Made by a program: the position numbers and the translations under genes. Positions 8,735 through 38,072 of a stretch of 64,000 nt of DNA are shown in pieces (positions within the stretch are counted from its first letter, which is position 1; each line of letters begins with the position of its first letter). The DNA lies in the NCBI GenBank assembly GCA_002633005.1, contig NMRA01000262.1, positions 6,902-70,901 on the forward strand. The letters are read 5' to 3'. This stretch comes from Phoronis australis (taxonomy: Eukaryota > Animalia > Phoronida). The notes beneath the pieces are model-generated. The model saw nothing but the letters and a program-made list of their open reading frames with translations. It ran no database searches and had not been told where the DNA came from.

Positions 8735-8798
8735 ATGGGACCCCAGAGTATGGCAGATGAAGATGACATCATTGGAAGTGCATCAGAGTTTATCAGAG
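8735..8798 (+). CDS. CDC14: CDC14 phosphatase exon 1 (MGPQSMADEDDIIGSASEFIR; alternative ATG at 8750)
   Basis: ATG...AGA G|gtagga. Phase 1, joining exon 2 to give '[12 protein letters not shown]', typical of the CDC14A N-terminus. Confidence 0.88.
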
Positions 8799-9004
8799 GT
8801 AGGAACTATTGAAATAAAGCAGTCTTAATTGAAAATGAAACCCAGTGCCGTGACCCTGACATAGCCCGTGTTGGCAGCTACCCGGGCTCACTTTGCACTG
8901 ACTGGCACTTTATCATTTTGAATTACTATGATTAAATATGAATCGTAGATTGTCTTTCATCACCAGAATCATCCCTCATGTATCCTTTGTCAATCTGTTT
9001 TCAG

Positions 9005-9095
9005 ATCGCCTCTACTTTGCTACGCTTAGAACTAAGCCACGCTCTACTGCTCACACTCATTATTTTTGCATTGATGAGGAGCTGATATATGAAAA
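9005..9095 (+). CDS. CDC14: CDC14 exon 2 ([31 protein letters not shown])
   Basis: tttcag|...AA|gtaagt, 91 nt, conserved N-terminal DSP domain sequence. Confidence 0.95.
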
Positions 9096-9332
9096 GTAAG
9101 TGACAATTTATTTGGCTTACTGCCAAAAGTTGCCTGACTGACTACAACATGTCTCATTCACATTTACCCAGGAAACTGACCTAACATGCAGTAACTATTC
9201 ATTCCTTCAGTATGTTTAGTGATATGGAGTCAACGCTGTCTATTATTGTGGCAGTTAATAGCTGTGTCTTTTAAACTGAGATAAATCTAAAAAAATATTG
9301 CAAGGAGCAACAAGCCACTAATTTCTCCTTTT

Positions 9333-9430
9333 CAAATGCTTCATAATTATAAATGCTTCATAATTATAAATGCTTCATAATTATAAATGCTTCATAATTA
9401 TAAATGCTTCATAATTATTTATAAATGCTT
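9333..9430. repeat. 17-bp tandem repeat, ~5.5 copies
   Basis: Unit AAATGCTTCATAATTAT. Confidence 0.9.
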
Positions 9431-10701
9431 AGAATTTTGCTACACATAAAATGACAAATACTTGACAGTGCTCTAAAGCAAGTAAATTTTTCTTCAGCAA
9501 TGCTCCTCAGTAATGTATTCTTGTGTAGAAATTTGACGCTACACAGTTTTTCTGCATGAACATCAGGCTGCAATATAATTTAGTAGTCTGTTGTCTGTTG
9601 TCTGTTGTCTGTTGTCTCATATACAGTGTGTAATGAGCCTGTACTCATTTAACCATGTTGAGGTCTTGCCAAGTATGGAAGACGTTATTTTTTGTTTGGC
9701 TGCGGATGTAAGAATGGCTTGAACTAAATAAATTGAAATATTAAATTGAATTGTTGCAGGATATGTTCATGGATAAGATAAAATTAAAGAAATTTATGTC
9801 TAGACAGACTCGCCCTGGTATTAGAGAAAACATTAACATACTTCATAAACCTTTTAATTTTGATGTTGGAAATAAGTCTGAAGTGACACAGAACAATAAT
9901 TTTCTTCATTTAATTTAATCGTAAAATCCTCCTTTGGTGACATTTGGCAACTAAAAGTGAGAAATGCCTGTCTGCTCTTACAATTATGTCTACCGTTTTG
10001 TAACAAGTTTCAAAAATCACCTGCACAATGCAATGAGGAAGCCTCACTTTGACATTCATTTGTTTGTCTTCTGGAATATATGCTCTAAATACTTAAAATT
10101 TGACTTCCATATGCTTTTTTCTTGTCTTTCGCTCTTTCATAAAATGAAAATTTATTGCATACACTCCAGTGTATATTGTCGTCTGCTCAAACTTTTTGCC
10201 ACTTTGATTGGAAACAATGATTTGACTTTATGTTTGCCAAACTCATTCTGGAAGATCGTTCCTGGACAAAGATCTAACCGTGCATCTAGCGTTTATTTTA
10301 GATGTTTATTAATTAATCTGTCTGTTTCTACGTCACATAAACAAACAACAATCAGTAACCTGGAATTGCACCATTTACGTTTCCTGGCCATGTCTCTCCG
10401 TCACGTCAATGTTTTGTTCATTTAATAAAACTGCAAGAAAAAGCTCACTAGGTTGAATTGCAACTGTGCATGGAAAACAGTGTGTTAAGGGATCTTTGCA
10501 CTTTGTTATTACAGAATTCAAGTTGTAGCAGTAGGAACAGAAACTAATTAGTTTCTAGTGTTTTTGGATCTGAACTCAAATCTTCACTAACAGTGATTAA
10601 GACTTTTTGTTGGGGAAAATATTAAGATTTGTTGTTAATGGCGTACTGGTAACTTCTAAATGGGCTGCCTGTAACTCAACCAGTTGTTCTTTATTTTTCA
10701 G

Positions 10702-10777
10702 CTTTTATGCAGACTTTGGTCCCCTTAATTTAGCTCAGTTGTACCGATACTGCTGCAAGTTGAATAAGAAACTAAAG
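10702..10777 (+). CDS. CDC14: CDC14 exon 3 ([25 protein letters not shown])
   Basis: tttcag|...AAG|gtaagt. Contains the FYADFGPL signature. Confidence 0.97.
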
Positions 10778-13640
10778 GTAAGTCAGCCGCCTCATTAATC
10801 CTGTCTGGCTTGAAATAATGAACTGCTGTAAAATGTCACCAAGTTTAGACAAAATAATAGCCAAAATTGCTTTTTTAGTTTTCAATGGCTTCTACTATCT
10901 CTGTTGTTGCCCATAATTTTCAAAATGTTTTTTATTTTAGCTATGTTACAGGACTTGTAAATCGTAAAGCAATATGTTGATTGCACTTGTTTTAAAAATT
11001 ATTAGTAAACACAGTTTGACAAGTTGGTGATATTCTGCCCTAAATTGGTGAATGTACCAACCTTCCTGTAGTTAGTTGTTCCTTTCCTGTGTTGCATTTT
11101 TTCATAATTCAAATAGTTTGCTGTTAACAATCAAAATTGGTGTATGATATTTATTTTGTAAATGAAAGCTCTGTCTTAGTATTAGGTTCGAGAAGAGTTG
11201 CCTTTAAATGACTTAATTGTCTGACCACTGAATGACCACAACTGCCTGACAATGGAATGACCAGAAATGTCAGACCAGTGATCTTTTGAGGATGCTGGTT
11301 TGAACTAATCAAAAGATTTTGTCCCTGACACTATGGCCGTCTAGCCTTTGCCTATGCTGCGGTTTGCAGTTCCGAAGCTTACTGCTTCCTGTGGCCTTGC
11401 ATATGCCAAATTTATTGTGGAAAACTTAAAACAGGATGGAAAGAATTTTGGTTCAACGTAGTTGTATACAATTTTACATGAGATTTGTTCAGTTTTAGAT
11501 AGTCTTTTCATGCCTAGGGTTAATCGGCTACATTAAGAGAACGTTCACTTACAGTAGGGCTATAACACTTAAACAGTTATTTGGTAATAAAAGAACTTTA
11601 TGAATTGATGTGGCTAACAGCTGTTTGGAAATTCTATGTAATTTGTTGGCAATGTATTATCAAACGGTCAATGGCTGGTTGTTGTCTCACAGAGCTGATA
11701 TCCTTCTAAGCGTTATCGAGAAAATCCTGGCAACTGTTGGGTACCACTAAGGCGTTTGTGTATCTGAACAGTCCTTAAAATTTAAACACTCATGCAAACA
11801 AATCTAATCTGTGGTTTACTGTTTCTTCTGAGGTCTTATCGTCAGCGATAATCGTTGATGTAAAAATATCATAGAACATCGTGGAGTACTTAATTAATTG
11901 CAATTGGTAGAAGTGTGTAAAACCTTGGTGATGTTAGTAAAGTGGGTCAAATGTGACATGGCACGAGTAGAATTGGGTTATGGAATTGGTTTTATCAAGT
12001 AAACATCAAGATTGGTTAATAATCATTCATGTTTTGTAGTTACTCCTTATGGTGTTGGCTTGTTTTTATTGAATTAACTTTCCTGTGTTCTGCATAGCTA
12101 TCACAGGTAGATGGTATTAGTGCATGTTACATTCAACTTTACTGTAATGTGCGTACTATCACAGGTAAACTTAATTTTGATTTAGGGGAATTTCCACTGT
12201 AAAGCTAGTCTCGGTTTTTCCTTCAATTCAGATAAAAAGTGATTTCTTTGCTTGTAAAGAGCTGGCAGTTGCGTACAGCTTCAGACCATGACAGTTGCAT
12301 GAAATGACCAGACTGGATAACTGACCAGTCACCTTCATCCGTTTGATCTCTATGAATAATGAACGGTCAGATCTTTGAATAACTCAAATATCACCTTTAG
12401 GTAATGTGAATAAATACCAACGGGACTAATGTTGTCGACTATTGTCAGTTACTCATGACTTTGTGTGTAACTTGTCCAGTCATTCAAGTTGATATAAAGT
12501 TTAATTCTCCTAACTTGTTATTCACTCAATATGCTTACCATCAACTTTAAAATGTCATAATTTCGTTTTTTACAACAACTCACAAAATTCTGCCATTGCT
12601 GGAAAAAAAAACCTTTTCAGGTGAATGGGGGCCTTAAAATTGGACAATTTTTATTGGAAAAATGCTTACTGCTTTTCATACAACTTAGTGGAACTGGCAG
12701 TGTTTAGAAATGTTATGATTTTGTTCGGTTAAGTTTTAACTTGTGACAATGTGATGATGGATTGTTCTATTTCTGGTTGTTTGAACTGGACATGGTAGTT
12801 TTGTTCACATCGCAGTTGTCATCTAAAATCTAGAAGGGGGTTACAGTCTGTTGCACGCTCTTTTTTGTTTACAGCTACTTAGTGGTGTTTATCCTATCAA
12901 CCAGTCTCTACTGATGTTGACTCAGTTGTCATGTAAGCTGTGCAGACTGTCATTTGGTTCTATAGAGTATTTACTTTGATCTAGTTGAACATCTGATAAC
13001 TGGTGAACTTATACCTGTGGAAGGGTATTGCCTCTTCTGTAGCTGCCTGACTGGTTCCTAGAGAGACAGATGGAAAATATGGCCAACTGCTTGTGTTGAG
13101 AAATACTCCGACTGTCTATTCCATGATGACGCATAAATTCAAGCCTAACAAAACTCAAATTTTTGAGTTCAGACTCCAACAGTCCAACTTATAGCTTTAG
13201 TGCTGGGGTCGTTATTTTCAAACTAGGAGCAGACTGTTGTCCATCTAAATCACAATGTACGCTAGCAGGGAATTATAGACATATCTTGAATTCGCCCAAA
13301 AATAAAACGGAAATGGCAAAAATAATTTCGAGTTCAATTTCGAGTACAGTGAGTAAAACAGAGGCTCAGGTGTGGATACACATTGTGGGCCGTAGACCAC
13401 TGAACTTACGTGAGACGCGTGTTGAAAGTTAAGCAGTCATATTACGTGGAATTTGACAGTTAAAACCATGTGTCAAACGGGGCCAATTTGTGAGTCGAGT
13501 CCATTTGAAAAGGTGGTTTTGGTCCCTGATGTCAAACAGTTGGAGAGGTGCTGACACGCAGTGTTTCGGGATCTGACCACTGTGCGTATCTCGGGCCAAG
13601 TATGTTGGTCTTCCATCAAGTTTGTTTTTTTTTTATTTTT

Positions 13641-14831
13641 ACTTGGCGAAATAAATTTCGCCAAATGGCGAAATAAATTTTTTTTTGTTCACTCTCTACA
13701 GGTTGCAATTTTCGTCCGATTTTCACGAAATTTGCACACAACGTGTACTGGAACGCTATTGTTTTTGGTCATGATCGGATACTAAATGGCAGACGTGGCG
13801 GCCATTTTGTATCCAATTTCACAGTCAAATGCTCGTAGAGGCCTCATTTTTTCGACATAGAGGGCTGAAACGTGGTACGATTATTATAAAACACATGTGC
13901 TACAACTGTGCCGAAAATCGTTGACTTCCCGTCAAAGATGGCGGAAATATTGGAAGTGGCGCATGCGCACCCCGATATCTGGCTAAAAACATTTTCTCCT
14001 TTAGAGGCGTATTTGCGAACCAATCAGTTTCAAACTGGTCACGTGTTTGTTGCTATTAACAAGCTTTTATAAAATTTTGTTTAACCGGAAGTCACTGTCA
14101 AGATGGCGGCTGTGGCGCATGTTCACACGTTTTCAATCGTTCTGCGGTCACGTTTTTAACGGGAAAAGCAAATGCCGTCAATTTGTGCATGTGGATAAAC
14201 GGCAAAATTTCAATTTTTTCCAAAAAGTTATGGAATGCTGCCAAACGTTCAAGTAAGATAGAGTTGTGAATGGGCTTTCAGAAGATATTTTCCATTTTTC
14301 GCTACGACGTCTACTTTTTGAATTATTCGAGATTCTCTGTTCGTTCGGTCTCTGTTGCACTGCCAATGCAAGCACACGCAGCTGGCCGGCTCTCTTTTGT
14401 TTTGGTTATGCCTGTACAAGTTGACCCCGAATGACCCAGCTAGCATCGTCCAACTGTAGACTTGGTTTGTTGACCCCAACTGACCCAGCTAGCATCGTCC
14501 AACTGTAGACTTGGTTTGTTGACCCCAAATGACCCACTTAGCATTGCTTCGTGGATCGTTCTTGCTGCTCTGATGTAGGTTTAGCTTTGTTGAGCTGTGT
14601 CCATTATGTTGCGCCATCTATTGTTCTTTTATTTTGATTAAATGCTCTCTTTTCTTGTCATGTATATTAACCGATCAGAAATCTGTACAGTGCGATAGAG
14701 TTTTAAATGGGCTTTCATAAGATGTTTTTCATTTCTCGCTAGTCGTCATGATCGTCGTCGTCGTCCTTCCCATCGTCCTGTTTTCGCGTAATTTCGCCAA
14801 GTGTCGCTCCTCCGAGCGCTCTCGATTGTTT
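13641..14831. mobile_element. Helentron/HINE(DINE-1)-like non-autonomous element
   Basis: 5' ACTTGGCGAAAT followed by an internal inverted copy (ATTTCGCCAA). 3' subterminal ATTTCGCCAAGT plus hairpin CGCTC-CTCC-GAGCG. T-rich flanks and internal ~44-bp repeats at 14415-14545. Confidence 0.55.
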
Positions 14832-14898
14832 TGTTTGCAGTGTTGTCATTGGCGAGATGTGTCAACTGTATAAAGCCTTACCACTTGATATTACACTA

Positions 14899-15069
14899 GA
14901 GTCATGAGTGACATAGTCATGAGTGACATAGTCATGAGTGACATAGCCATGAGTGACATAGTCATGAGTGACATAGTCATGAGTGACATAGTCATGAGTG
15001 ACATAGTCATGAGTGACATAGTCATGAGTGACATAGTCATGAGTGACATAGTCATGAGTGACATAGTCA
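14899..15069. repeat. 15-bp minisatellite, ~11 copies
   Basis: Unit AGTCATGAGTGACAT. Explains the three spurious repetitive ORFs here. Confidence 0.95.
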
Positions 15070-16011
15070 ACTGTGGATATGGTACTAAATGGGCAGATAG
15101 TCTTGTAATATGAACAGCTGTCACTATAGCAACATGACTTCATTTTGTTATCTTGTTTCATGTTGGAAGGTCCTGGAGAGAAATCTCCCTTGGCCTCATT
15201 TTAAAAATGATCTATGGTGTCAGAAAATATAGGTCTATGGATACTAATAGTTAAGCTCATCCAATGTTCTGCCCTCAGAGTTGCAGCCAACAACATAGCA
15301 GTAAAACTTGGCTGGCACTGGAAGGTCGAATATAGTTAATTTAAAAAAGTTAGGCCCAACAAATAACATGAAAACGAAGCTTGAGATGTTCTTGATGGGT
15401 GTTGCAGCATGGTAGTTAAATATTGTGAGATCCAAGTGTGGCTGTATAATCCTGGACAGTCCTAGTTCTGAAGGAAAAAACCTCGTGAGAGCCGTAAAAC
15501 AAACATGCCGGGACCGTTCTTTCATCCTTTTTGGTCCCCTTCCTCTTAAATTCATCTGTGAACTTACGTATGGTTAAGTGACAGAGGTCTCACATTTAGA
15601 CCCTATTTTGTCCACTGAATAAAGGGCATCTAACTGGTTCTCATGAGTGATAATCCAAGACCCGGTAACTATTGCCGTTGTATCATTACGAACCAGGCAG
15701 TAAACCTAACGGTAACTATTGCCGTTGTATCATTACAAACCAGGCAGTAAACATAACTTTCTGCAGTTTATGTGTCACTGTACATGTTTTGCATTTCTTA
15801 GAAAATACTGTGTACGTTCACTTCAGCAGAATTTTTATGAAAAGATTAGACTGTTGTAAGTATCCTGTGTGCTGTGACCTTCAACAACTGGTGTTTTTAG
15901 CTAAGAAGTTTTAAGGTCAGCCTGAGTTTAACCTAAACAGATATTCAATTAGTTTGAATATTTTATGAGTTGTAACCCAAGCTGCTCTGTGGGGGTATCT
16001 GAATGTTGAGC

Positions 16012-16385
16012 GCTGAACCGCTGACCAGATGAAGGATAAACATGGTGTTTTTGGGACTGCATATACTGAACCGCTGACCAGATGAAGGATAAACATGGTG
16101 TTTTTGGGACTGCATATACTGAAGCGCTGACCAGATCAAGGATAAACATGGTGTTTTTGTGACTGCATATACTGAACCGCTGACCAGATGAAGGATAAAC
16201 ATGGTGGTTTTGTGACTGCATATACTGAACCGCTGACCAGATGAAGGATAAACATGGTGTTTTTGTGACTGCATATACTGAACCGCTGACCAGATCAAGG
16301 ATAAACATGGTGTTTTTGTGACTGCATATACTGAACCGCTGACCAGATGAAGGATAAACATGGTGTTTTTGTGACTACATATACT
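16012..16385. repeat. 53-bp minisatellite, ~7 copies
   Basis: Unit CTGAACCGCTGACCAGATGAAGGATAAACATGGTGTTTTTG(G/T)GACTGCATATA. Confidence 0.95.
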
Positions 16386-17121
16386 TTCAGTATTCTAGTA
16401 TTTATTGGGAGTATTCTAGGCGTTGTAGTAGTACTGGTCTCTGTTATCATTTCCATTAAACTTATCACAGTCAAGAAGTTATCCACTGATCTTTGTGAAA
16501 GTTGGCCTCATTTCCTTGTTTGGTTACTGTTGAAGTGATGCTTTCAGTCTCTCAAGACTCCGCTCTATATCCTGGGGGTACTCCCTTAGCATAGGTACAC
16601 ACCTGACGTTCCGCTCAAAAGGGAGACTTTCATGGCAGTTTCCCTATGTATGGCTTATGAAATGGTGATTTTGTGTGGAAGCTCCATGCAAATGGGTTCT
16701 TTTTTGAGTCCACTCTTTAAATGGGTGTGTATCCTAATTACATAGCTGCCCCCTGTCAAGCTGTACTTCTGTATTATCTCCCCAAGGTTTTGTGTGCAAT
16801 CATACTCTATTGGTTCCCTATGCAGGGTTCTCACTCTGCATGGGTTCTAAACACTGGTCTTCCTATGTAAGACTGTCACACTGCATGGGTTCCAAACACT
16901 GGTCTCCCTTTCTGACAATTCACTGAATTACTCATAGTTATACAATCATTTCCACTTGTTGAACTCGTCACTAACTATTTTTACATCTTGTATGAGTGCA
17001 CAACTCTAAGCTCTTGCTTTTCAAACATTGAAGATTTCCAAACATGGCTCAAATCTTTTCAGAGCTGCATAAATACTGTTATGTGGGAATGTTAAGCTAG
17101 AATGAGCTGAACAAAGCTATA

Positions 17122-17290
17122 CCTAGCTTTGCCTTAGGTCTAGAAATAGTTGTTATCATGACTCCTAGCTTTGCCTTAGGTCTAGAAATAGTTGTTATCA
17201 TGACTCCTAGCTTTGCCTTAGGTCTAGAAATAGTTGTCATCAGCACTCCTAGCTTTGCCTTAGGTCTAGAAATAGTTGTGATCAGCAGTC
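17122..17290. repeat. 42-bp minisatellite, 4 copies
   Basis: Unit CCTAGCTTTGCCTTAGGTCTAGAAATAGTTGTTATCATGACT. Confidence 0.9.
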
Positions 17291-19940
17291 CTTGCAATTG
17301 TCAAAGTTTTGGTGACTCGTCACTTTCTTGTTCTCTTTTTTCCAGGGTGTCATGATTTATCGATACGATGACAAGGTTTGCAGCATGTGCACTGCTCAAT
17401 GCTGATTGGCCAGTCTCAATAGTTTCATTCCTTATTCCTCACCTCCACCTTTCTTTATAACATTAAAACACATAGAAATATTCCATCCTTACTATTTGCC
17501 TTGTGATTTTGAAGTGCCTACAAGTTATGCTGTAATTGTGTTGGGCTTAACAATGAGAATCATGTATAGGCAATCAGGCTTATGTAGCCTGTGTGTATTG
17601 TATTTGGACTGTAGAATAGTGGAGTGCTTTTTAGTCTGGTGACCAGAGAGTGTAACCTGGGGATGCTGGGCGTGTGATTGGAGCTTGCCTCTCAGATTTC
17701 ATTCAGCGCAATTCTCCTGACTGATTTCTCTCAACCTGGAGTCTGTTTTGTGAATGTGACGACAGAAATTTAGTGTTATGCCCCCCACTTCACAATTGCA
17801 TATAGCAATTTGGAGATAATTTATTGAAATTATCTTAGTACCTAGTACTTATGCATGCATATTCTCAGAGGCTGCACTTCGATCAAGTGAGATTTAATTG
17901 TTTTGTTTTTGGAGATATAGCATGCCTGTATCCTGTTGATGAATGCTGGTCCTCACATTTTACTGTAAGGTCACATAGTTTCCAGTCGGGTTGCTCCTAT
18001 AGCTACTACTAAGCCTATGTGTGTCCTTATTTTCAAGTTTGTGCATTCAGCCTAATATTTGCAGACCTACATTCATTTAATTAATAAGTACTGTACCTGT
18101 ATATATTGTCTGAATATAGACTGAAACCCTTTGTTCTAGATTATTGTTTTGCTTTTGTTTCTTACACCTTATGCAGTTTTTTATGAAAATCCTTCAATTT
18201 CTGGTTTTGATTTGCCGACATGCAAAGCTGGGACATTTTAAAAATGAGCTTTTTGGAGAACAGTTGGTGTATAAAGCATATAGTTTGAGATTTCATTTGA
18301 ATATGGTCAGTTTAAATCTCTGTCTCTCTGCCCTGCTTCCTGATATATTTTGAATGTGTTCCAAAGTTTGCCAAATTTGTACAATTCCCTAGGGTTTTAT
18401 ATAACCTTAAGCAGACATTTACAACTGTGTGCACTGTAACTGTTCCCATGTAGCCACAGAAACATGTAGTAGTCGCAAAAACAACAAGGAAATGTTGCAG
18501 TTCTTTGAGCAAGCATCTGTTTCACTGAAGGACAAAAAAATGTTTGAAGTGCTCGATGATCGTATACAGGAGGTTACAAGCATCAATATGATCCTATGCA
18601 GGACAGTACCAACATGAATATGATCCTGTGCAGGACAGTACCAACATGAATAATCAAATGATGTTATTTCCTTTTCGGTCTTTAGACGCTGTTGAGAGTG
18701 ATCAAAATATGCCGTTTTGGATATTTCACAATTTCTCATCAGTGCTTAAAGCAAATCAAGATGTTGAAAGATTTCTATGCGGTTAGAACAACCTCATGGT
18801 TTTTTAGCATTTTTTTGTTTCAAAACCTTGTAGCAAAATTGGTACTAACTCTCACCAATAGTAGGCAATACAGACAACATGTGAGATTTTGTTTCATTAT
18901 TTCTCCATGACACACATGTCACATCAGCAAACATTTTAGAAGCAGTTGAACAATCAAAAAAGGCAGACTTTGCAATTTTTTTTCTGAGATTAGCGAGATT
19001 TTACTGTAAACTAAGTACATTGTGCCGCTCAACCCTTTACTAGGTTCGTGTAGTTTTTGTTACAAACTCTTGCTATCCAATTCATGCCATGTTGTCAGTG
19101 AACCAGATTATTTGACTGTTTTCCTTGTGTTTGTTTTTTGTTTTGGTAATGAGATGCACCATACATGTTGACCGGGTCAACAACCTTTCTGGTGGGGGTG
19201 GACTGCATCTTGTTTATTGTGCCTGGTTCTTTAGCTAGCAATACTTACAGCCTGAGAGTGATTGTAGATTATTTGCCTTATTTGTCTGTCTGTTCAGCAC
19301 TGCATCATGCTGGACCATTGGAATTTAATTGTTTCAAATTTCTCAGCAAAAATATATTTACTGGGATATCAAGGAAATATTTCTCTGTTTATTAGCACTC
19401 TTTGTCTAGATGCACCAACTAGTCTAGTGTCACCATCCTGTGCCAAGGCATATTTCCTTTGTTGTAGCGATCAGAAAATGGCTGTTGTAGATATTTTAGT
19501 GATGGTGAGTGGGTGCTATGGAGATTGTGAGGTAGTTATCATGTTGATCTGCGTCAATGTGTTGAACACAGTGTTACGTGCTGTTGTGACCAGGAGTGTT
19601 ACTATCCAGGATTTTTCTGCGGCTTATAGTACATATGCACAATTGATTACTGCAGAGGTCTCCAATGATCTGATCAGTACGTCCTTTTCTCTTGGTACTA
19701 GTATGTAACTTACGGAGCATGGCATTCAGATACTGTGGTTGGCTATCCCAAGATGCTCTATTCAATATCCTGGGGTCTTATTAACTTCTTATTATAACAC
19801 TGATAATGTGTGTGGAGAGCTGTTTGGAGCTGGTTGTGTGCAGAGATATTATAGATTGTTGTTTTTGTGCCCAAGTTAGGTTGGTCAAGATCCTGTGTTT
19901 TGTGGTAGTAGGCCATCATGTATTGACAGCAGTTGACCTA

Positions 19941-20195
19941 CCGTATTCGCCGTAATAACTGCCCAGGGCTCTTAGAAAAGTTCGTTTCAGGGCACTTATT
20001 ATAACCCAAGGCCGTTGAAACCCGGTCACCGAAACGGGTGAAATCGGAAGCTAAGATTCATCATATTTACGCTCTGTAGCATATTGGTAATCTATGAAAA
20101 GACTTTCTTCAAAACTGTGGTGCATTGCCATCAAACTTTGATGCTAAATTACGATCATTTTACGGGAAATTGTGCTGAAATCCCAGGGCGAAAAT
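19941..20195 (-). mobile_element. Tc2/pogo-like element end (inverted partial copy of the 33753-35250 family)
   Basis: TA|CCGTATTCGCCGTAATAA... is the reverse complement of ~35015-35250. The other end was not located. Confidence 0.75.
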
Positions 20196-21164
20196 TCTGT
20201 GCCATCTATTGGCCATTTTTTATGCTAGAAATAAACACTCCTAGAAGCACACCGTTTGTGGTGCACTCGTTGCTCTTGTTCACAATGCAAAACTTTATTT
20301 CAAACAAAGTAATGGAGAAGTTGTATTGTGAACATATCTCTGTATTCCTTAACATTAAAGTCGCATCCAGTATTTGGTTTTGGACGCCATCTTTTACTTT
20401 GATTATTTGGTTCAACATAGTTAGCACTCTTCATTACTGTTAACAACACCATGGACTGAATAATGTTGTTTTAACGCAACATCTTTATCGCTACAATAGT
20501 TCTTCACTTATTTTGAACAAATTGCCAAAATTGTCGCCATTCTATTGGGCTGCTTTCGCATTGGAGTTAGTTCGAACTAGTTTGCAGTTGGAACATATTT
20601 AAGATTAGAGTGATATCTGCCATGCCAAACTGTCCTCTTTCTTACCAGACCAGACTAACATTCTACCGTCCTAACTTGAAAGCTTCATTGTACTAAACAT
20701 AAGATGTTGCTACGCTGTACCCCAATAGGGATTTGACTACCAATTTCAACAGTATGTGGACTTAAATGGCAACAACGTCGAGAGTGTACGAAATGGCGGG
20801 ACGCAAAGTATTAGCCATCGTCCGCGTGCCCGCCAAGTGGGCGGGCAGATGTTAAATCTGGCGGGCAAAATTTGCAACTGCGGGGGTGACGGCGGGCTAT
20901 TTACATGCCAACATTTACGCGTTTTCTTCTGGAGAGTATACGCTTTCGATACTTAAACACAACACTACAGTCACGAAAAGTAGTCTGCACCAAACCTTTC
21001 ACATTGCGCTCTGACCAACTTTGGTACGCTCTTCAGTTCGATCTTTTCTAGAGTACTAACTTGAGTACCATACCAAATTTAGACTGTTTTAAATCACCTT
21101 CCACATTTTGACTAAAATGTTGTGGTCTAGAAAAAATGTAAGTCCACCATAATGCTACTTTCGG

Positions 21165-21520
21165 AAAATAATGCATATACCGTTACGAAGTTAAAATAAT
21201 GCGTATACCGTTATGAAGTTAAAATAATGCATATACCGTTACGAAGTTAAAATAATGCGTATACCGTTACGAAGTTAAAATAATGCGTATGCCGTTACGA
21301 AGTTAAAATAATGCGTATACCGTTACGTAAGGACCAGAGAAGTCCTTTATGTTTGTGCTGTCACCAGCTATTACTGAACTGATGATCCCTTACATGAGTT
21401 AGGACCAGAGAAGTCCTTTATGTTTGTGACTGTCACCAGCTATTACTGAACTGATGATCCCTTACATGAGCTAGGACCAGAGAAGTCCTTTATGTTTGTG
21501 ACTCACCAGCTATTACTGAA
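21165..21520. repeat. Abutting 28-bp (x~6) and ~71-bp (x~2.7) tandem repeats
   Basis: AAAATAATGCGTATACCGTTACGAAGTT repeats to ~21327, then AGGACCAGAGAAGTCCTTTATG... repeats. Confidence 0.9.
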
Positions 21521-22405
21521 ATAATAGGTTCTGTCAGGTTATCATAGTTGACCTACTTATATTGTTTACATCAAATGCAATGTCTGTTAATCTCCTGTGT
21601 TGCAGGGGTAGAGTGTTTAAACCTTTATGTTTATTTCTATTCTATTTACCAAACATGTCAACCAGTGCGATTTCTATCTTCCGCACTTTTTGCCAATTTG
21701 AAATAACTCCAATCGTCAGTTTTCCCGAAGTACTGCTGTTTTTTAAAGCGCCTGATTCTCCATTTAATTCTCCCATATCGCCAAAACTTGTCATTTTTTA
21801 TTGTTCACTGTCTGATAAGTTTGCTACAGATAGTGGACACTTTACCAAATGTTGTTTTATGCCAGTACAAACTGTGCTAGTAGTATAGGCTAGTAGTAAG
21901 CTAAAGTTATCTTAATCTTCATTTTGTGAAGAAATTTGACAAAATGGATTTCACATGGCGGTCATATTGTACACTATAAATGAAGAATTACCATATAGCT
22001 GATTCAGACTGGGACATTATGTCATCACTCAGGACTGGTGTGCCACTGTATTCAGCCGGCGATACAGAACTGCAATTTTGATATTTTTTTACAAAATTAG
22101 TAGCTTAGTTACTTTGTCTTGTTGCTAAGGTCACTAGAATGTTGCCAAATCAAACACTGGAAATTTCTGTTATTTCATGATGCTGTTGACCTTTGTTTTA
22201 ATGGTCTAAAGCTACCTTTCTTCATGCTTTGTGGTTTTAATAAAATAAAAATCCACTTTTATGCGTTATTATTTTGGGTAGAACAATTGTTTTCAGCTTT
22301 AATTTGTGTTGAAGCAGTCACATTTTCCGTATGTTTTCTTTGTAACCACAGCGCATCACCAAAGTTCTTCCGCACACACCTCAATTGTCATGTTTCGCTT
22401 TTCAG

Positions 22406-22498
22406 TCTTTCTCATTGGCCAAGAAGCGAATAGTCCATTACACCAGTTTTGACGCAAGGAAACGAGCAAACGCCGCTTTTCTAATAGGATGTTACGCT
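22406..22498 (+). CDS. CDC14: CDC14 exon 4 ([31 protein letters not shown])
   Basis: tttcag|...GCT|gtaagt, 93 nt. Contains the KRANAA motif. Confidence 0.97.
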
Positions 22499-23334
22499 GT
22501 AAGTACATAGATGTTTAGTGATTATGTATTTGCCTACTATTATGACCTGATTTGTACATTCACGTCACATCATTTAAAAAAAGTTGTAGGTCTTTGGGTT
22601 TTTTCCGATTCAGGTAACCATGGTCGCAGTGTAGTACTTTTTTACAAAATTATGTGTTTGGGTCAATGGGTGTGCTCTGACAACTGGTACACCCTTTGTA
22701 TGCTCCCGTGGAGTTGAGGATTACGATTGACCAATTAAGTCCACAGCCCGGTAATAATTTTCAAAGTTTTTAGAAATTTACCTTGCAGAACTGTTTATCA
22801 AACCTCACTTGACATCATAATGACAACTGGCAAACTAATCTCAATTCAAAATAGTGATGCGCTCAGCAGCAATGTACAACTACATGGGAAGTGCCCTACA
22901 AATGCACAGGGTTGTGGGTATTATTGTCTTAGTGGTTGAACAGGCTTGATGTACGCCAAAGAGATGCACCTGCAAAACAGCAACCTCACACCTTGTGCGG
23001 AAATTTGAGCTTGCAAGCACTAACTCCATACCAAGAAATAAACTATTGCAACTAAACTCAAGTCATGGGGTTGTGATGCCAACACGGTGTGCTTGGGTGA
23101 CGGGAATTGAGGGTCTGGGCCATTTTTGTTACTTTGCAACACATTCACATCCTTTTTGGGCCTATTTCGTTAAAGAGACCAATCAAAGGAAAAGTGCAGA
23201 GAAGAAAATAAGATGAAAGAATTTTTAGTTAAGAAGTTTGTTTGAGTTTTCAAGGAGAAGATGTGCATCGGATTTCTTTGAAAACTGCTTCATCTAATAT
23301 CTTGTAGGAATTAAGTAAAGTTTTTCTTTGCCAG

Positions 23335-23414
23335 ATTATGTATTTAAAGAAGACGCCAGAAGAGGCGTACAGACCATTAGTAGCAGGAAATAACCCTCCA
23401 TTCTTTCCCTTCAG
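23335..23414 (+). CDS. CDC14: CDC14 exon 5 ([27 protein letters not shown])
   Basis: gccag|...AG|gtaagt, 80 nt. Confidence 0.96.
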
Positions 23415-24629
23415 GTAAGTTGAGTTATTTGTGAACTCTGTGGTGTATTATTTCACCATCCTATGCGTTTCGCCATCATACTACTTCTACAGTTTTTGAC
23501 CATTTTGACACACAGGAGGCTTAACTGGGGAAACTGAAAACTCTGGACGTAGACATTTAAATGCGAAAATTTAAAGATTCTTTGGTGTAAGGTTGTGAAG
23601 AATCTTAGAAAAATGTCCAAATTTGGCTAACTTCAGAACATCATATCTCAGAAATGAAACTTTCAGGCACTATGCTTTTTTGCACTGTTCTCCAGACGAT
23701 TTTATGAATGTTTTTTTAAAATGTTCCATGAAGTACGAACAAAAATGGAACAAGTCTTAAGTCACTTTTCAGAAAACAGACATTAGGGCACTTTGTACTT
23801 TCTATTCAAGGTGTGTTTCAACTAGTCTTTTACTGTTATTGTTGTGGGTTAGCATAAACTGAGGGAAGTTATCTGCAAAATATGCCAACTGGGCTAGTTC
23901 TTTCAGTTGTTCTCTTACTTTCACACATTAGCTTGTCTATGTGCTTTGCTTACCGGGATGTGGGGCTGTTAGTTTAGCATATAGCCATTTGTCTACACTA
24001 GGCATTATTAATGTAAGTTAATGATTGTTGGATACTGACGTAGAGTAAGTGGGTGTTACCTGTCAACAGGCAAACATGAAAATTATGACTCAGTCATCAA
24101 TATCCTTTGAGCAGAAAACTGGACACAAGCTTTGTTCAGTCTATTCAGGATTTAATCCATTATGTATTTTGAGCCTGACCCACTAAGATTGGCCCTTGCT
24201 TTCACACTTGGTCCTAATCAATAGTTGGTCAACTGTTATTATTGACCAATTACCTAAGGTGAGCTTGTTTCCATTCATTATTTGTAATATGCCTCTAGAG
24301 GGAGCTGCTGATAGGTAATACTTTCCAACTACAGACCAAAGGATTACTTACAACCAGCAATATACATATATTGAGAGAGGAGAGCTTGATTGCTTTAGAT
24401 TCCTAGCTGTCAGTGATAGTGTCCCAGTGACCTGTTCTGTTCTAGCCTCATCTCCATTGTTGGGTTCTGTTTGTTACGTTCAAAATAGGGAAATTAGGGC
24501 TCTTTAGGATATTCTGTCACCGTGGATCAAACTCTTACTGCTATTATATTGGAAAATAGGGATCACAAGTTATGAGCAGAAAATGTCTTTTTTAAACTAT
24601 TTTAATGTATACATGAGTTATTTGCTTGT

Positions 24630-24648
24630 GTACACACACGCACGCACG

Positions 24649-24683
<35 letters not shown>
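24630..24683. repeat. (CA)n/(CACG)n microsatellite
   Basis: Directly visible. Confidence 0.95.
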
Positions 24684-24685
<2 letters not shown>

Positions 24686-25411
24686 TATGGCATGAGGTTT
24701 AGATTTTAAAAAGTTAGTTTTGTTGAATTTTGTCAGTCTGAATGTATGTAAGCCAACTGCCATCTTGGTGATCTTGTTTATCTCCAATTTGGATTTGTTA
24801 CTTGGAGTATGATGTAATTACTTTCTGTCCCTGTGTACAGTGTATTGAAATAGACCCGTCCTGAAATAGTACAGCATCACTCTCATTCTAAGATATTTAC
24901 CCACAATGAAACACTGTACAGTGTATTGAAATAGACACGCCCTGAAATAGTACAGCATCACTCTCATTCTAAGATATTTACCCACAATGCAGCACATGTG
25001 TCAAGACATTGTCTTGCTTCTACACATAAATGTCTAGTTACTATCTCATGTCTAATCGTTACGTGTTGCCAAAATTCGCCCTTTTCACTTTGCAAAAGGT
25101 TCTAACATCGTTACGAATGACCAAACTTTTTCAGAATCTTGGTGTGATGGTAACATTTATTTGGAGCTACTTATATGAAAAAGATGAAATTTCACTTATT
25201 GGTCATATTTATGTCCTGAATTGGTGACACTTGATGGTATTGCATTTAGAGTTGGAATTGTGACATTGGCAAATATCAGTAATGGATACACAGTGTATTA
25301 TTAATCAACTCATTAGTGGAGGACATTTTGAAAAGTAGGTCAGTCATGCAAAAGTAGGTCAGTCATGCTAGATACTTTGCTATCAAGAAAGAGAAAGTTT
25401 CAATTCATGTT

Positions 25412-25766
25412 CAAGGTACCTAAACTACACGGTTAACGGACTCATAAACACGGTCATGGATGCTTGAACACGACTCACGTACCTGCAAACACCATTCACT
25501 GACTCACAAACACGGGAACGGACTCACAAAACACGATCCATTCATCCAAATACATGGGACACGGACTCACATTCACGAAGAAACACGGTTAACGGACCGC
25601 CAAACACGGTTAACTTCGATAAAGCATGCACGGGTCATGGACTCATCGGCTTCCTGAGACAGCTGACATCTACGTTTTCTATGTAAACTGTGTTTGAGAG
25701 TCCGTGGTGTTCATGCGTCCGTGACCATGTTTATGAGTCCGTTAACCATGTAGTTTAGATACCTTG
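25412..25766. mobile_element. MITE with long (~55 bp) terminal inverted repeats
   Basis: CAAGGTACCTAAACTACACGGTTAACGGACTCATAAACACGGTCA... pairs with ...TGACCATGTTTATGAGTCCGTTAACCATGTAGTTTAGATACCTTG. Internal GGACTCA/ACACGG subrepeats. TSD ambiguous. Confidence 0.8.
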
Positions 25767-25837
25767 GTGTTAGGCATATTGTGTTCACTGTAAGTAGTGC
25801 AAGAATGTTGTGATTTTAATCTTTCTGTTTGTAATAG

Positions 25838-25904
25838 GGATGCCTCCTTTGGAGCCTGTACATACAACCTGACACTGTTGGACTGTTTACATGGTCTGAA
25901 CAAG
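25838..25904 (+). CDS. CDC14: CDC14 exon 6 (DASFGACTYNLTLLDCLHGLNK)
   Basis: aatag|G GAT GCC...AAG|gtaaga, completing the PFRDAS motif. Confidence 0.97.
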
Positions 25905-26731: not shown

Positions 26732-26794
26732 GCCTTGTCCAATGGCTTTTTCAACTTTGAAACATTTGATGTTGATGAGTACGAACATTATGAG
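26732..26794 (+). CDS. CDC14: CDC14 exon 7 (ALSNGFFNFETFDVDEYEHYE)
   Basis: ttgcag|...GAG|gtgagc. Acidic inter-domain linker helix. Confidence 0.97.
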
Positions 26795-28162: not shown

Positions 28163-28250
28163 AAAGTAGAAAATGGTGATTTCAACTGGATTATACCCCA
28201 CAAATTTCTGGCTTTCTGCGGGCCGCACCCTAAGAGCAAGATAGAAAATG
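28163..28250 (+). CDS. CDC14: CDC14 mutually exclusive exon 8a ([30 protein letters not shown])
   Basis: ttgcag|AAA...AAT G|gtaggc, 88 nt, phase 0->1, intact. Too short to appear in the ORF track. Confidence 0.92.
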
Positions 28251-29205
28251 GTAGGCCTTGTTATCACCTGCTTTTGACACGGTCATCGTAGGGACCTCTT
28301 TTTCCGGTGGCGGAGACGATTTGAATTGACATTTCACGTCCGTTTGTCTATCTTCTTAGTCTCTGTATCAAAATAGCCTGCCCATTTGCTTTCCAAATTT
28401 TGAACCAACTTTTAGAACCACTGAACTTTCTCTTCACAAACTCAGAAGTATTCATTCCCAGCACCAAAATGCGAACTTTTGGAACAAGACCAAAGCATTA
28501 AGATGTATACTCCGATTGCTGTATCACCGGTCAGACGAGGGTATGAATTCATTTTCCCAAGGGGTGGCCTGCAATTAGAAGTCTGACTTTATTTTAAGGA
28601 TGTATTTCAATGATTTGGAGCGTTTATTCAGGGTTTGGAAGATAGATTTACGGTTTACCTTGTGTGTAATTTCATCAAACTTGATTCACTATCTGGTCCT
28701 TCCATGTGATGAATCAAGTATTGTATTTTGTCTCTACATTCTTATGTCTTTTGATCTCTGGCACGTATGGTCCCTAGCGATGACTTGAACAGGGTCTGGT
28801 AGTTAGGGAAATACTCACTCAGATGACAGAGAAAACTGGCTTTACCCGAATATTTCCTTAAGAAAAGATGAACATAATTTTAGAAGAATGTACTTCGGAT
28901 ATTGTACCTCTTGGTGTAAGCTATTTTGTTTTGTTATTCTATCTTATCAAACTGGTTATCAGGAATTGATGCAACAATATTTTTACAGATTTCTGAATCT
29001 GTCTCTTCCAAACACTTTGCTATGATGAAAATAAGGAAATGTTATGGGCATGCATAAGTCAAAAACCTATGTTCAGAAGGGATTATTATCAAGGTATCAA
29101 AGCCACTGTGACTGTCATCTACTGCTACATTCTCCCTTTTACCAGACTCTGTGCCAAGTAATTCACTTCACTCACATGTTCTTGTCTCGTGTCTTACTTC
29201 GACAG

Positions 29206-29293
29206 CGTGTTGAAAACGGTGACCTTAACTGGATAGTCCCCGAGAAATTTCTGGCCTTTAGTGGGCCGCACCCAAAGAGCAAAGTTGAGAATG
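29206..29293 (+). CDS. CDC14: CDC14 mutually exclusive exon 8b ([30 protein letters not shown])
   Basis: gacag|CGT...AAT G|gtaacg, 88 nt, phase 0->1, intact. Confidence 0.93.
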
Positions 29294-30438
29294 GTAACGG
29301 GTTCCCCTAGCTAGCTAGCTCATCGTTTATCGTTGTTGCTCACTAATTTCTTACATTGCTTCTAGTTGTTTAAACAACAGCTTCCTTACGGCTTTATCTA
29401 TCCAGATTGCATTTTGTTGTTTGTCTTGATGTGTGTATTCACTGAAGCTGTGTTAAGAAATGAACTCTGGTTTGTTTCACTACCGAGTGGTCCTAAATTT
29501 CTGTCATTGAACCTGCATTTATTTTTATTTTTCTCGGGGTCCATTTCATGAAATGCCGCTTAATACATTTTTTGCTCTTTATTTCATGATGTTTTTGCAA
29601 AGTTATATTTTGGAAAAATCCTCTTTATTGTTTATATATAACTTGTAACCATGTTTTCCAAAAACGCTTTGAAAATTTGAATGAACAATTTTTGAAAATA
29701 TTTTCATGAAATGGGACCCTAATTCACTTACATGGTTAGCCTTTCCATATTTCTGTCATTGTGGATTGCTCGTTAAATTTTTGTTGCGACTTTAATTTTG
29801 CTCTCAATTCTCCCAACATATGACTGTATTGTGTTTTTTGATACATTATATGTGAGTCTGTGTGTCTGTGATATCTTACTCGCGTTATTTACTAACTCAA
29901 GATTTGTCCTTTGTTGTAAAGGTGGTGATGCGATTGATGTAGGTGGACTCTACTAATGGCTACTGAAAACTGGTGTCTTTATTTTCTTATCCAACAATAC
30001 AGTGTTGGCTGAATCATAATAAACATCAAAGCCAGTTCACTTTACTGCACTTAAGTGAAATGTTTTAGTCTTGTAGCATATTCAGTAAATCCAGCTTTTT
30101 ATTGACTTTGGTGTTTATCCACAAGTTTTAGACGACGTGTATTCCCAACATTTGTTAGGTCAGTGATGCACAACAACTTTTATTTCATTTTTCGAAAAGA
30201 TCACCAAAATCATGATGTGAACTGTAGACAATACAAATTCAGCTTAATTTGAAAGTGCAGTTTTGTCAAATTCTATGATTTATGTTGTTTTTTTTTTGAT
30301 TTCCTGTACGATTTTTACTTCAATGGAACTAAACTTAAAGTAGTAAGATTTTTGTGCAATCTACTGTAGATTTGCATGTATGTTATAACAGATCTATTGT
30401 GTAATTTTAGTTCTGTCACAAGTTGTTCCATATTTCAG

Positions 30439-30669
30439 GCTACCCATTGCACGCACCCGAGGCCTATTTCCCCTACTTCAGAAAACACAATGTGACCACC
30501 ATAGTGCGACTGAACAAGAAGATTTATGATGCACGGCGGTTTACAGATGGTGGCTTTGACCACCACGATCTGTTCTTTGTCGATGGCAGCACGCCAAACG
30601 ACAATATTCTTAGGAACTTCATTGAAATCGCTGAGAATGCTGAAGGAGCCATAGCTGTCCACTGTAAAG
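30439..30669 (+). CDS. CDC14: CDC14 exon 9 ([18 protein letters not shown]...[10 protein letters not shown]...AIAVHCK)
   Basis: tttcag|...AAA G|gttagt. Contains the general-acid DGS loop and the start of the catalytic HCK. Confidence 0.98.
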
Positions 30670-31116: not shown

Positions 31117-31255
31117 CTGGTCTTGGACGTACTGGTACCCTGATAGCCTGCTACATGATGAAGCACTACAAGTTCACAGCAGCTGAGTGTATAGCTTGGC
31201 TCAGAATCTGTCGACCGGGTTCTGTCATTGGTCCACAGCAGAATTATCTAGAAGA
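31117..31255 (+). CDS. CDC14: CDC14 exon 10 ([18 protein letters not shown]...[14 protein letters not shown])
   Basis: ttacag|...GA|gtatgt, completing the CX5R motif HCKAGLGRT. Confidence 0.98.
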
Positions 31256-31838
31256 GTATGTGTTTGCTCCCTATGCTGCTGTGTCACGCAATATGTCATG
31301 ACTAGTTACACACGTGCACCTCTGTCCAACTAGTTACTCACGTGCACCTCTGTCCAACTAGTTACACACGTGTATCATTTCAAAGGTACAACTTTAAAAG
31401 GTTTAATACCTTCGCACCTACTATTAAAAATTTTGATTTAGACTATTTACTGTTATGAAATTGAATTGATCTTGTTTTTTACTTTGGGGCTAGTTTCTAT
31501 TCTTGGGAAGAACCGACGTGTCGTTATCACTTGAGACAGTGCTTGTTTATTTGCTTGTTGCACCGTGTTAGTAACATTCTCCGAAGCAGTATAGCTAAAC
31601 AGATAATTCTGAGTATTTTATCATAACCAATTCATGTTCAAACAACTGATCAGAGTGTTATGACGTTTTTTAAGAGAAAATACTGCATGGGAAGAGAGCA
31701 TCAGAGTGTTGCGTATACGGCATGGGAGTGTTGCGTATACGGCATGGGAGTGTTGCGTATACGTCACGCGACTATAAATTGTAAGAATTGTAGGTCAAAT
31801 AGATCTTGTATTATTGTGTCTTCAATCTTCACTTTCAG

Positions 31839-32046
31839 TAAACAATCGTGGTGTTGGATGCAGGGTGACATCTATAGGTCACGCCAGAAGGACCGGTTCC
31901 GTGACAAGTCACGAGACCACGTGTCAGGCATCCTCAGTGGCGTTGACGAGATGAAAATCAGTGATGTTCTCGAGAACAACAACAAGTACATGACGTCGGC
32001 GTACGACCGCATCGACGACGACGTAGACGGGCGGTATGCGGATGAT
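31839..32046 (+). CDS. CDC14: CDC14 exon 11 (KQSWCWMQGDIYRSR...YADD)
   Basis: tttcag|T AAA...GAT|gtacgt. 'W.QGDI.RS' motif, phase 2->0. Confidence 0.9.
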
Positions 32047-32577
32047 GTACGTTATCGGTCAAACCCGAGTGTAAATGTTAAGATTTTCTTTCATCTTGTT
32101 TCCTAGAAGTGGTGCTGGTGTGCTTGTCTGTCCTTTGTTGTGGGTCTCAGGTACTGTATACTGTCTTTATGATGACTTGAGCTGAAAACTGTTGAACTTA
32201 ACCAGTCAAATGATCACTGTTGTTACCAAAGTTCTGTCATTACAATGTTTGAATCAACATTATATGGTTTTGTTAAATGGAAGCAGAGACAATGAAATTT
32301 AGTGACGGTTATCTTTTCAATGTTGTTACCATTCACATCTGTGTTGGTTATCCTTGTAAAATTGGGGAATTATTGGCATTAAGAAGATAATGGCCTATGA
32401 CTAAAAACATTAAAGGAGAATGCCACCCTATTTAAATAGTCTTTTTTATCGTCTTAATTGGTCTATATCCACATCATCTCTTATACGGTCAAACTCACCT
32501 CGCTGAGAGGTGTTGCGTGAGGAAGGTGAGAAACGACACAGCGACGTCAGTGGTTCTTCTGTGGAGTGAATGCTACT

Positions 32578-32796
32578 ATGGTGTGGTGTACTGTTCCCAC
32601 TTGTGCGCACTATGAAGCAGCGAGGAAAGCGTGTGTATCGTTTTTTCGATTTCCTCGAGAGCCCGTGATGCTTCGGAAGTGGCTTGCGGCAGTGAAGAAT
32701 GAAAAGTACGCCGTTAATACCAAGTATGAGGCCGTGAAACATCTCCGTGTCTTTGGCCGGCATTTCGTCGACAGTGATTTCATTTGCCAAACCTGA
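32578..32796 (+). pseudogene. Degenerate THAP zinc-finger ORF within the Kolobok-like element
   Basis: MVWCTVPTC...SFFRFPRE...RKWLAAVK...LRVFGRHFVDSDF follows the THAP C2CH pattern, with the third Cys replaced by Phe (TTT), and stops immediately after the domain. Confidence 0.8.
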
Positions 32797-37170: not shown

Positions 37171-37274
37171 TACGCTGGCACCTCCACCAGGAGTGGTATG
37201 ACACAGGGCGACAAGTTGAACCAGTTGAAGATGCAGAGGAAACACCCAAGGTCAGCCACTACCGGCACCATGGC
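37171..37274 (+). CDS. CDC14: CDC14 exon 12 (YAGTSTRSGMTQGDKLNQLKMQRKHPRSATTGTM)
   Basis: ccacag|...GC|gtaagt. Contains the conserved metazoan CDC14 'TQGDKL' motif. Phase 0->2. Confidence 0.93.
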
Positions 37275-38072
37275 GTAAGTTAACATCTCCAGTCTGCCCT
37301 GTTTTATTGTGTTCACTTCTCTGTGTCACTGGTATTTTTTGAAATTCAGATATTTGTTACAATTAATTTTTTTTCAGATATCGTATTCTCAGTACTCGTT
37401 GTCTAGAAGCTATCAGTCCACTGTTCTGAGCATATAGCATTTAATTCACGGTACAGCAGAGGTTTCCAACTTGCAATTTCGTAAGATACAGGATCACAGG
37501 ATAATGTTTGATTTGTGAACAATTACCTTCACTAACATTGAAATTCATTGGAAACATTTCCATACATCAACCAGTCTGATCTCGTTTAGTTGTGCTGAAT
37601 GTACAGTCCAGTGTTGACACCTGATTGAGTGAGGCCTCAGTGGACACAAATACTGGTCTGTAAATAAGTATTTGCATGGACCTTGCTGGATAACCACCAT
37701 GAGCTGACTTAAAAATCTTACACCTGCGCTTTTCTAAGGCACCAAAAATACTCTTTCCTTACATTTTGGTTAAAAAAATGACAAATTTTAGCTCAAATAA
37801 ATTTAGCCAAAATGTATTCCCAAATGGTAATCTTCTAACATGACAGTAATACCTTTCAAAGTTAAGGTTATTTAGGACTCTAGAAAAATGTCCAATTCTG
37901 GCCAACTTACTGTCCTTAAAGAAATGATGATTGTCAAAGATGGGCCTATGTGAGGCTTTAAATTTCATTTTGAAATGTTGAAATTCTTGTGCAGCCCCTG
38001 TCTGCACTCCTAAGAACATTGCTGACCTTCGTAGTGATCTTTCTTATCTAGTGTCATGGTTGTCACTTTCAG

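Follow-up and report, generated by a model that had tools for sequence, protein, structure and literature searches.

Two alternative copies of CDC14 exon 8 in Phoronis australis, shared with molluscs, may supply or withhold a backdoor cysteine

The CDC14 gene of the phoronid Phoronis australis carries two adjacent copies of exon 8, which raises the question of whether the gene chooses between them, how old such a choice is and what it would change in the enzyme. The gene is the only CDC14 gene in the 64,000-nt stretch of DNA that was analysed (the window) and all its exons lie on the + strand. Exons 1-3 (8750-8798, 9005-9095 and 10702-10777) and exons 4-6 (22406-22498, 23335-23414 and 25838-25904), identified from their open reading frame, GT-AG sites and tblastn matches, encode the DSPn domain (8750..25904), and the exon 5-6 junction is present in RNA as loose ends. 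Exon 7 (26732..26794) is constitutive, ends in phase 0 and is supported by the gene model and by the RNA joints 6-7 and 7-8a. It is followed by exon 8a (28163..28250), the major form, identified by sequence and RNA joints and bearing Lys1, Phe7 and Cys19; by a U2-type intron of 955 nt (28251..29205), characterised by sequence, helix and element searches; and by exon 8b (29206..29293), the minor form, identified by sequence and RNA depth and bearing Arg1, Leu7 and Ser19. Exon 9 (30439..30669), also constitutive, matched CDC14A with an E value of 2e-39, and its last residues, His-Cys-Lys, belong to the phosphatase motif and include the catalytic Cys278. The remainder of the HC(X)5R motif is encoded by exon 10 (31117..31255; RNA and gene model).

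Downstream of exon 10, exons were recovered between 31839 and 38928 using RNA, tblastn and sequence. They include 31839-32046, with an RNA joint 31255-31839, about 37171-37276, where an RNA loose end reaches to about 37171 and the boundaries are approximate, and about 38723-38928; for the latter, as for a candidate exon near 38060-38262, approximate boundaries were taken from the sequence. Exons 1-7, 9 and 10 remain open with either 8a or 8b, and the full frame contains DSPn and catalytic DSP domains in tandem with the HC(X)5R motif, as in the CDC14 family. The Haliotis relative P0204 has DSPn and DSPc domains and a fold matching 9RIB/1OHE. Two weakly supported trees, one made with a quick method and the other with FastTree, placed the window CDC14 outside the molluscs that were sampled, and its best identity was 86-87%, with Crassostrea. 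Among the other features of the window, a THAP domain reading frame (32575-32793, + strand; Pfam PF05485, E 4e-11) in the intron after exon 11 probably belongs to the remnant of a DNA transposon. An array at 44357-46226, with 44.5 copies of a 42-nt unit matching at 99%, about 630 codons open in one frame and 44-nt repeats following it, is probably an intronic minisatellite. Short intronic stretches at about 25707-25766 and 31428-31463, covered by many divergent reads of both strands with loose ends, are expressed repeat families.

The original prediction described two intact 88-nt exons with identical phases, and both were found in the sequence. Each has 88 nt, an AG acceptor and a GT donor, and is entered in phase 0 and left in phase 1; as neighbouring homologues that match in length and phase and have valid splice sites, they take the form of a tandem duplicate. 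The copies are identical at 66 of 88 nucleotides. At the codon level, 14 are identical, 9 differ at synonymous sites only and 6 change the residue, and these changes (K/R, F/L, I/V, H/E, C/S and I/V) are exactly the ones that had been predicted. Synonymous sites are saturated (pS 0.79, compared with pN 0.12). There was no significant similarity between the 8a-8b intron and the 8b-9 intron, the best match being an inverted one of 22 nt (E=1.8), and the comparison of intron 7 with the 8a-8b intron listed no match, in agreement with the claim of unrelated flanking introns. Since the synonymous sites are saturated, the introns unrelated and the pair conserved across species, an assembly artefact or a haplotype copy was excluded. 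The proposed old duplication under purifying selection thus holds, given pS and pN and the RNA and conservation described below.

The frame permits exactly one of the two exons, as had been reasoned: together they create a stop at residue 205 (TGA at 29211-29213), and without either of them a stop follows at residue 192. The distance between them is indeed 955 nt. Their placement at the start of the catalytic domain was correct in that the exon runs into the strands before the core, but it begins in the interdomain linker helix. Exon 8 corresponds to CDC14A residues 173-202, from within the linker helix to the first strands that precede the catalytic core, the interdomain linker of CDC14A being residues 157-179 (PMC12796106). 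No other duplicated CDC14 exon was found in the window by tblastn with eight relatives. That 8a and 8b are a real, conserved and mutually exclusive pair is, in our judgement, close to certain.

The use of the two copies was examined in three stranded RNA runs from one study, bearing the same species label, of each of which 18-19% was read. Joints, which were listed only when covered by at least 3 reads, connect exon 7 with 8a (49, 49 and 12 reads in the three runs) and 8a with exon 9 (58, 39 and 22 reads), alongside the joints of exons 6-7 (50, 46 and 19) and 9-10 (61, 57 and 35). Joints to or from 8b, between 8a and 8b, or between exons 7 and 9 were not listed in any of the three runs at this threshold of at least 3 reads, 8b being rare. 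When the reads were mapped again with depth bins aligned to 8b, run X3 had a depth of 1.0 in exactly the two 8b bins, with 0.05 in the preceding bin and 0.02 in the following one. In run X2 the depth was 1.77 and 1.0 in the 8b bins, with 0.09 and 0.02 beside them. Run X1 had no 8b reads, and the X4 contigs contained nothing on the stretch, which is no proof of absence.

About two reads in X2 and one in X3 therefore cover 8b, with overhangs of 2 nt at the 5′ side and 1 nt at the 3′ side. Since the 5′ overhang fits the final AG of exon 7 and the 3′ overhang the first G of exon 9, these reads indicate splicing of exon 7 to 8b to exon 9; splicing from 8a would match 1 nt only, rather than the 2 nt matched from exon 7. 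About 3 reads for 8b, two of which may be one pair, against 112 exon 7-8a loose-end reads correspond to roughly 3%. Scattered intronic reads of depth 1-2 are also present in the RNA. Judged by the depth shape of about 3 reads, a small proportion of transcripts in this species apparently contains 8b, joined to exons 7 and 9. Both copies are thus joined to the same flanking exons, 8a by joints and 8b by depth shape and the mollusc isoform pairs described below. The junction reads that the original prediction had called for are clear for 8a in the three runs; for 8b no joint was listed, and its splicing is read from depth.

The pair is conserved well beyond this species. We refer to copies with Cys or Ser at position 19 as the Cys type (8a) and the Ser type (8b). 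Same-length isoforms differing only in exon 8 were found in Haliotis (P0204 and P0316), Patella (P0522 and P0350) and Mytilus edulis (P0511 and P0520). The Ser type was also found in H. rubra, and both types in two Patella species and in the oyster cluster, in Magallana gigas and Saccostrea echinata. In Patella the Ser type is the commoner one (6 of 10 listed members). The Mya and Sinanodonta representatives are of the Ser type and the other bivalves of the Cys type. Among the listed models, Littorina, Aplysia, Pomacea, Candidula, Liolophura and Capitella had the Cys type only, and two nemerteans, Tubulanus (7 of 7) and Lineus (9 of 9), the Ser type only; Owenia and Lingula had one model each. 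Absence from gene models does not amount to absence from genomes.

A scan of metagenomes for the exon, in which 79 loci were kept from the best 80 of 509 confirmed, detected two copies in at least six of these loci (L006, L034, L039, L045, L062 and L041), always with the Cys type upstream and the Ser type downstream. The second copy of L041 is cut by the contig end, and this locus is near-identical to L006. Of the 28 genomic loci among the best 80 of 509 that span exons 7-9, four had two copies and 24 had one. Judged by the remaining exons, L006 (96-97%) and L045 (95%) are bivalve-like, L034 and L039 are annelid-like, being closest to Capitella and sequences near it (86-90%), and L062 could not be placed. 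The length, frame and splice sites of 8b were kept in all six ordered loci, with pN 0.09-0.23 and pS 0.91-1.06 relative to the window 8b. With pN far below pS, and with the pair present in five further ordered loci and five named genera, purifying selection across species is evident. The pair is shared with snails and clams and probably with segmented worms. Its simplest reading is one duplication before the split of gastropods and bivalves, probably on the lophotrochozoan stem. That split dates from the early Cambrian. From the sequences compared, a single lophotrochozoan origin of the pair seems likely.

Other peculiarities of CDC14 were met in the same survey. Seven loci (L046, L056, L059, L063, L066, L071 and L072) stand apart as a divergent CDC14 group that has a single exon 8, of the Lys/Leu/Cys kind, and an altered start of exon 9, where L063 also has repeated partial copies. 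L045 lacks the exon 6-7 intron, and its exon 7 has a GC donor (position 961) in place of GT and an extra residue. Two divergent CDC14 proteins in one species of the snail Babylonia (P0356 and P0360), both of the Cys type, represent a gene duplication. In Branchiostoma, four same-length pairs (P0451/P0362, P0453/P0452, P0449/P0448 and P0446/P0455) have 11 differing residues in exon 6 (residues 135-151), apparently a separate mutually exclusive pair in CDC14; exon 6 is a single copy in the window.

To see what distinguishes the two copies, 29 columns were compared in 11 pairs, six genomic and five from named genera. The a/b label of the five named pairs rests on residues and is tested independently by the six genomic pairs; Mytilus and L045 are kin, as are Magallana and Saccostrea. 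Position 19 was the sole fully diagnostic column of the 29, with Cys in all 11 8a copies and Ser in all 11 8b copies. Position 1 is Lys in every 8a copy, and Arg (10) or Lys (1) in 8b. Position 7 is Phe in every 8a copy, and Leu (7), Ile (2) or Phe (2) in 8b. Glu3 and Asp6 do not vary in either copy. All six ordered 8b copies encode Ser19 with AGY. The mean identity among 8a copies is 25.9 of 29 residues and among 8b copies 20.4 of 29, with 8b varying at many other sites, most strongly at positions 23-29.

In the window, Cys19 of 8a (codon TGC, 28217-28219) is protein residue 192, 86 residues before the catalytic Cys278, and the corresponding Ser19 of 8b is encoded by AGT at 29260-29262. In PDB 1OHC, position 19 corresponds by alignment to chain position 190 and the catalytic Cys is residue 276; the spacing of 86 equals that between residues 228 and 314 of human CDC14B; it was the same in 7 of 7 proteins checked. 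Because of this alignment and spacing, we equate position 19 with the Cys228 site of human CDC14B. The original prediction had proposed mapping the six differences onto the structure but had missed that C/S falls on this position. In the AlphaFold model of Haliotis P0204, the position-19 residue lies just past strand 188-191 and the catalytic Cys just past strand 273-277. According to PMC4493999, only Cys228 and Cys314 of the 10 cysteines of human CDC14B are needed for the H2O2 gel shift; a disulfide between them was suggested, inferred from the gel shift only. Backdoor cysteines favour disulfide formation, as summarised in PMC4351059. A second Cys at the known disulfide-partner site is present in 8a only, and the 8a protein would accordingly be predicted to form a Cys192-Cys278 disulfide that the 8b protein could not form.

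As the best explanation, we propose that the exon 8 swap may be a splice switch between a predicted redox-sensitive CDC14 and one without a backdoor cysteine, a proposal for which belief and doubt are evenly balanced. That such a redox toggle would be the main selected difference between 8a and 8b deserves slightly less than even credence. A single origin followed by ordinary conservation would likewise give a fixed Cys/Ser difference. Position 19 is labile in single-copy genes, with 45 Cys, 34 Ser and 5 Ala among 84 exon hits (loci from the best 80 of 509), and these flips would fit lineage-specific tuning or weak constraint.

Separate duplications in molluscs, annelids and this lineage, followed by convergence, could also have produced the pair, as in the mrp-1 precedent cited in PMC7434440. 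The introns range from 163 to 1302 nt in size without common sequence, and the exon tree has only 29 columns, with 83% support for the a/b split. We nevertheless consider separate duplications improbable, since the order is the same in 6 of 6 loci, the same three positions serve as markers and the AGY serine codon recurs in all six. In addition, 8a agrees across species at 25.9 of 29 residues, whereas 8a and 8b within a species agree at 20.1 of 29, and the a/b labels need one tree change as against 7.1 for shuffles. More improbable still is a pair that predated the vertebrates and was split into CDC14B (8a) and CDC14A (8b) after genome duplication, the correspondence that had been suggested originally. 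Human CDC14B does share Lys1, Ile11 and Cys19 with 8a, and mouse CDC14A shares Arg1, Val11 and Ser19 with 8b. However, Ser19 was found in all 120 CDC14B-type rows retrieved and the CDC14A-like Arg1 in 119 of them (the named rows being from teleosts, bowfin, sturgeon and sharks, and none being tetrapod CDC14B), and the suggestion had to be abandoned. Both exons scored better against CDC14A than against CDC14B (bit scores of 50.5 for 8a and 50.3 for 8b with mouse CDC14A, and 40.2 and 36.6 with human CDC14B). The 15 listed members, out of 27, of the stickleback cluster of CDC14B all have one exon version, and the listed deuterostome models have one Ser-type version each (amphioxus 15 of 18, Ptychodera 15 of 20, Saccoglossus 4 of 4, Diadema 14 of 14 and Amphiura 9 of 9). 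Deuterostomes have Ser, and Strigamia and insect-like loci have Cys. With Ser in 120 of 120 fish and shark CDC14B rows, the vertebrate paralogues do not descend from different copies and subfunctionalization of the pair is not indicated. Since these rows are of the Ser type, the Lys and Cys of human CDC14B are later changes, probably convergent with 8a.

Selection may instead have acted on substrate or partner binding, through Lys/Arg, which lies next to the substrate groove where the linker helix ends, through Phe/Leu (position 7) or through the surface loop at 23-29, with Cys/Ser riding along. The near-fixed states of Lys1 (11 of 11 in 8a, versus Arg in 10 of 11 8b copies) and Phe7 (11 of 11, versus Leu or Ile in 9 of 11), the variability of 8b at positions 23-29, and the position of the exon at the linker (CDC14A 157-179; PMC12796106) between two domains that both build the substrate groove (PMC11407943) are all in favour of such a role. 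We regard it as unlikely, though it deserves attention: the Lys/Arg and Phe/Leu exchanges are conservative and separate the copies incompletely, the acidic residues Glu3 and Asp6 never vary in either copy, and the loop differs in the window by Ile/Val only, with no loop state common to all 8b copies. Another explanation, that 8b is a foldable vestige under relaxed selection which has no distinct role while 8a does the work, would account for its use of about 3% here, its faster divergence and the odd substitutions in L034 and L062. The Cys type is also the only one in many mollusc and annelid model sets, and L063, which covers exons 7-9, has a single copy, of the Cys type. Against a vestige, the length, frame and splice sites of 8b have been kept in 6 of 6 ordered loci despite saturated synonymous sites, and 8b is listed more often than 8a in Patella (6 of 10 members) and is the sole listed form in two nemerteans. 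This makes the vestige quite unlikely.

How the choice of one exon is enforced was approached through the introns. The spacers between 8a and 8b measure 163-1302 nt, and in six loci the zone without AG ahead of 8b covers 31-62 nt (45 nt in the window). The spacer length and the short AG-free zones speak against steric exclusion, which would place the branch point of 8b within about 50 nt of the 8a donor; a distant branch point was rejected, and the original view of steric exclusion as unlikely is borne out. An incompatibility of U12 and U2 sites was rejected as well, all donors having GT and U2-like bases and all acceptors AG when compared by eye with the U12 splice-site consensus. No conserved intronic docking or selector elements were found across the loci, which are from species too distant for short elements to be recognised. 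The best intron matches between species are AT-rich chance hits; L039 and L062 match each other over 18 nt ahead of 8a (E=0.13). In 17 of 18 tests of helices between intron pairs, at least one of 12 shuffles scored as high, the exception being intron 7 with the 8b-9 intron in L062. Two inverted matches in the window (28474-28495 with 30106-30127, and 28484-28499 with 30059-30074), among 122 pairs, would loop out 8b; for the best helix between the 8a-8b and 8b-9 introns that carry them, 7 of 12 shuffles were as high. RNA pairing, which had been put forward as a mechanism, consequently finds no support in the absence of conserved elements and of helices above chance, at distances too great for short elements. 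The early stops lie several junctions before the last exon, and the wrong products would therefore be substrates of NMD, which is a plausible filter. Competition between splicing factors with such a filter would be the remaining mechanism.

These observations suggest the following course of events. It would start from two intact copies of which the frame permits exactly one, 8a being dominant in the three RNA runs, and from an 8b that, on indirect evidence, is spliced between exons 7 and 9 here and also occurs in the gene models of five mollusc genera. One early-lophotrochozoan duplication probably gave rise to the pair, with later loss or fixation to one copy in some lineages. Ordinary competition of splicing factors would choose between the copies, and NMD would remove the products of double inclusion or skipping. 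In the 8a protein, the Cys192-Cys278 disulfide would make oxidative inactivation reversible; the 8b protein would be differently sensitive to H2O2 or recover differently from it, perhaps in a single tissue or under one kind of stress. We propose tentatively, and with rather more doubt than belief, that exon choice may have given lophotrochozoans redox-sensing and redox-blind forms of CDC14 for more than 500 million years, and that mammals may have convergently rebuilt the contrast between CDC14B and CDC14A.

If this were so, splicing would tune the response of an enzyme to oxidation by moving a backdoor cysteine in or out. Whether the H2O2 sensitivity of CDC14 is of consequence in cells is judged from little more than one human CDC14B mutant series. 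Here, natural matched isoforms, identical outside 30 residues, have kept Cys versus Ser across molluscs and probably annelids; they make it testable whether the second cysteine protects or sensitises, and which tissues or stresses drop it. The results also correct the tempting story that the pair foreshadows vertebrate CDC14A and CDC14B. Both isoforms are already in RefSeq or automated annotations, unnoticed, and a literature search outside subscription journals and supplements found no prior paper on a CDC14 exon duplication. What appears to be new is the depth of the pair's conservation and the fact that its sole fixed difference falls at a reported redox cysteine.

Alternative exons that are homologous and ancient form a well-known class. 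The exon 8 pair belongs to the ancient tandem duplicated exon substitutions (PMC9741552), and shares with them equal length, great age and mostly conservative changes. One of them, in Ca-alpha1T, is likewise a protostome-wide pair absent from chordates. CDC14 is not named in the main text of that article, and its pair differs by a single diagnostic thiol in an enzyme. Like the one-of-two systems of Dscam, Mhc and ATE1, with their docking and selector clusters, and the steric pair 4a/4b of OGDH, the CDC14 pair involves a choice of one exon, but it lacks above-chance helices, conserved intronic elements and a long AG-free zone. The nearest functional analogues in these phyla are coq-2 exons 6a/6e (PMC7434440) and the duplicates of exon 10 in oyster AOX (PMC5589949), duplicated alternative exons with which molluscs or annelids adjust an enzyme and which are linked to oxygen stress. 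Those are metabolic enzymes with demonstrated functional or expression switches, and the AOX exon is terminal, whereas CDC14 is a signalling phosphatase with a predicted switch.

The Cys of 8a resembles the backdoor cysteines of PTEN, Cdc25 and SHP phosphatases (PMC4351059), and it has the same position and the same 86-residue spacing as the Cys228-Cys314 pair of human CDC14B (PMC4493999). In a narrow literature search, no backdoor cysteine subject to a splicing switch came up. In mammals, the Cys/Ser contrast lies between two genes, with Cys in human CDC14B and Ser in mouse CDC14A, and arose after fish, whereas here it is made by splicing within one gene.
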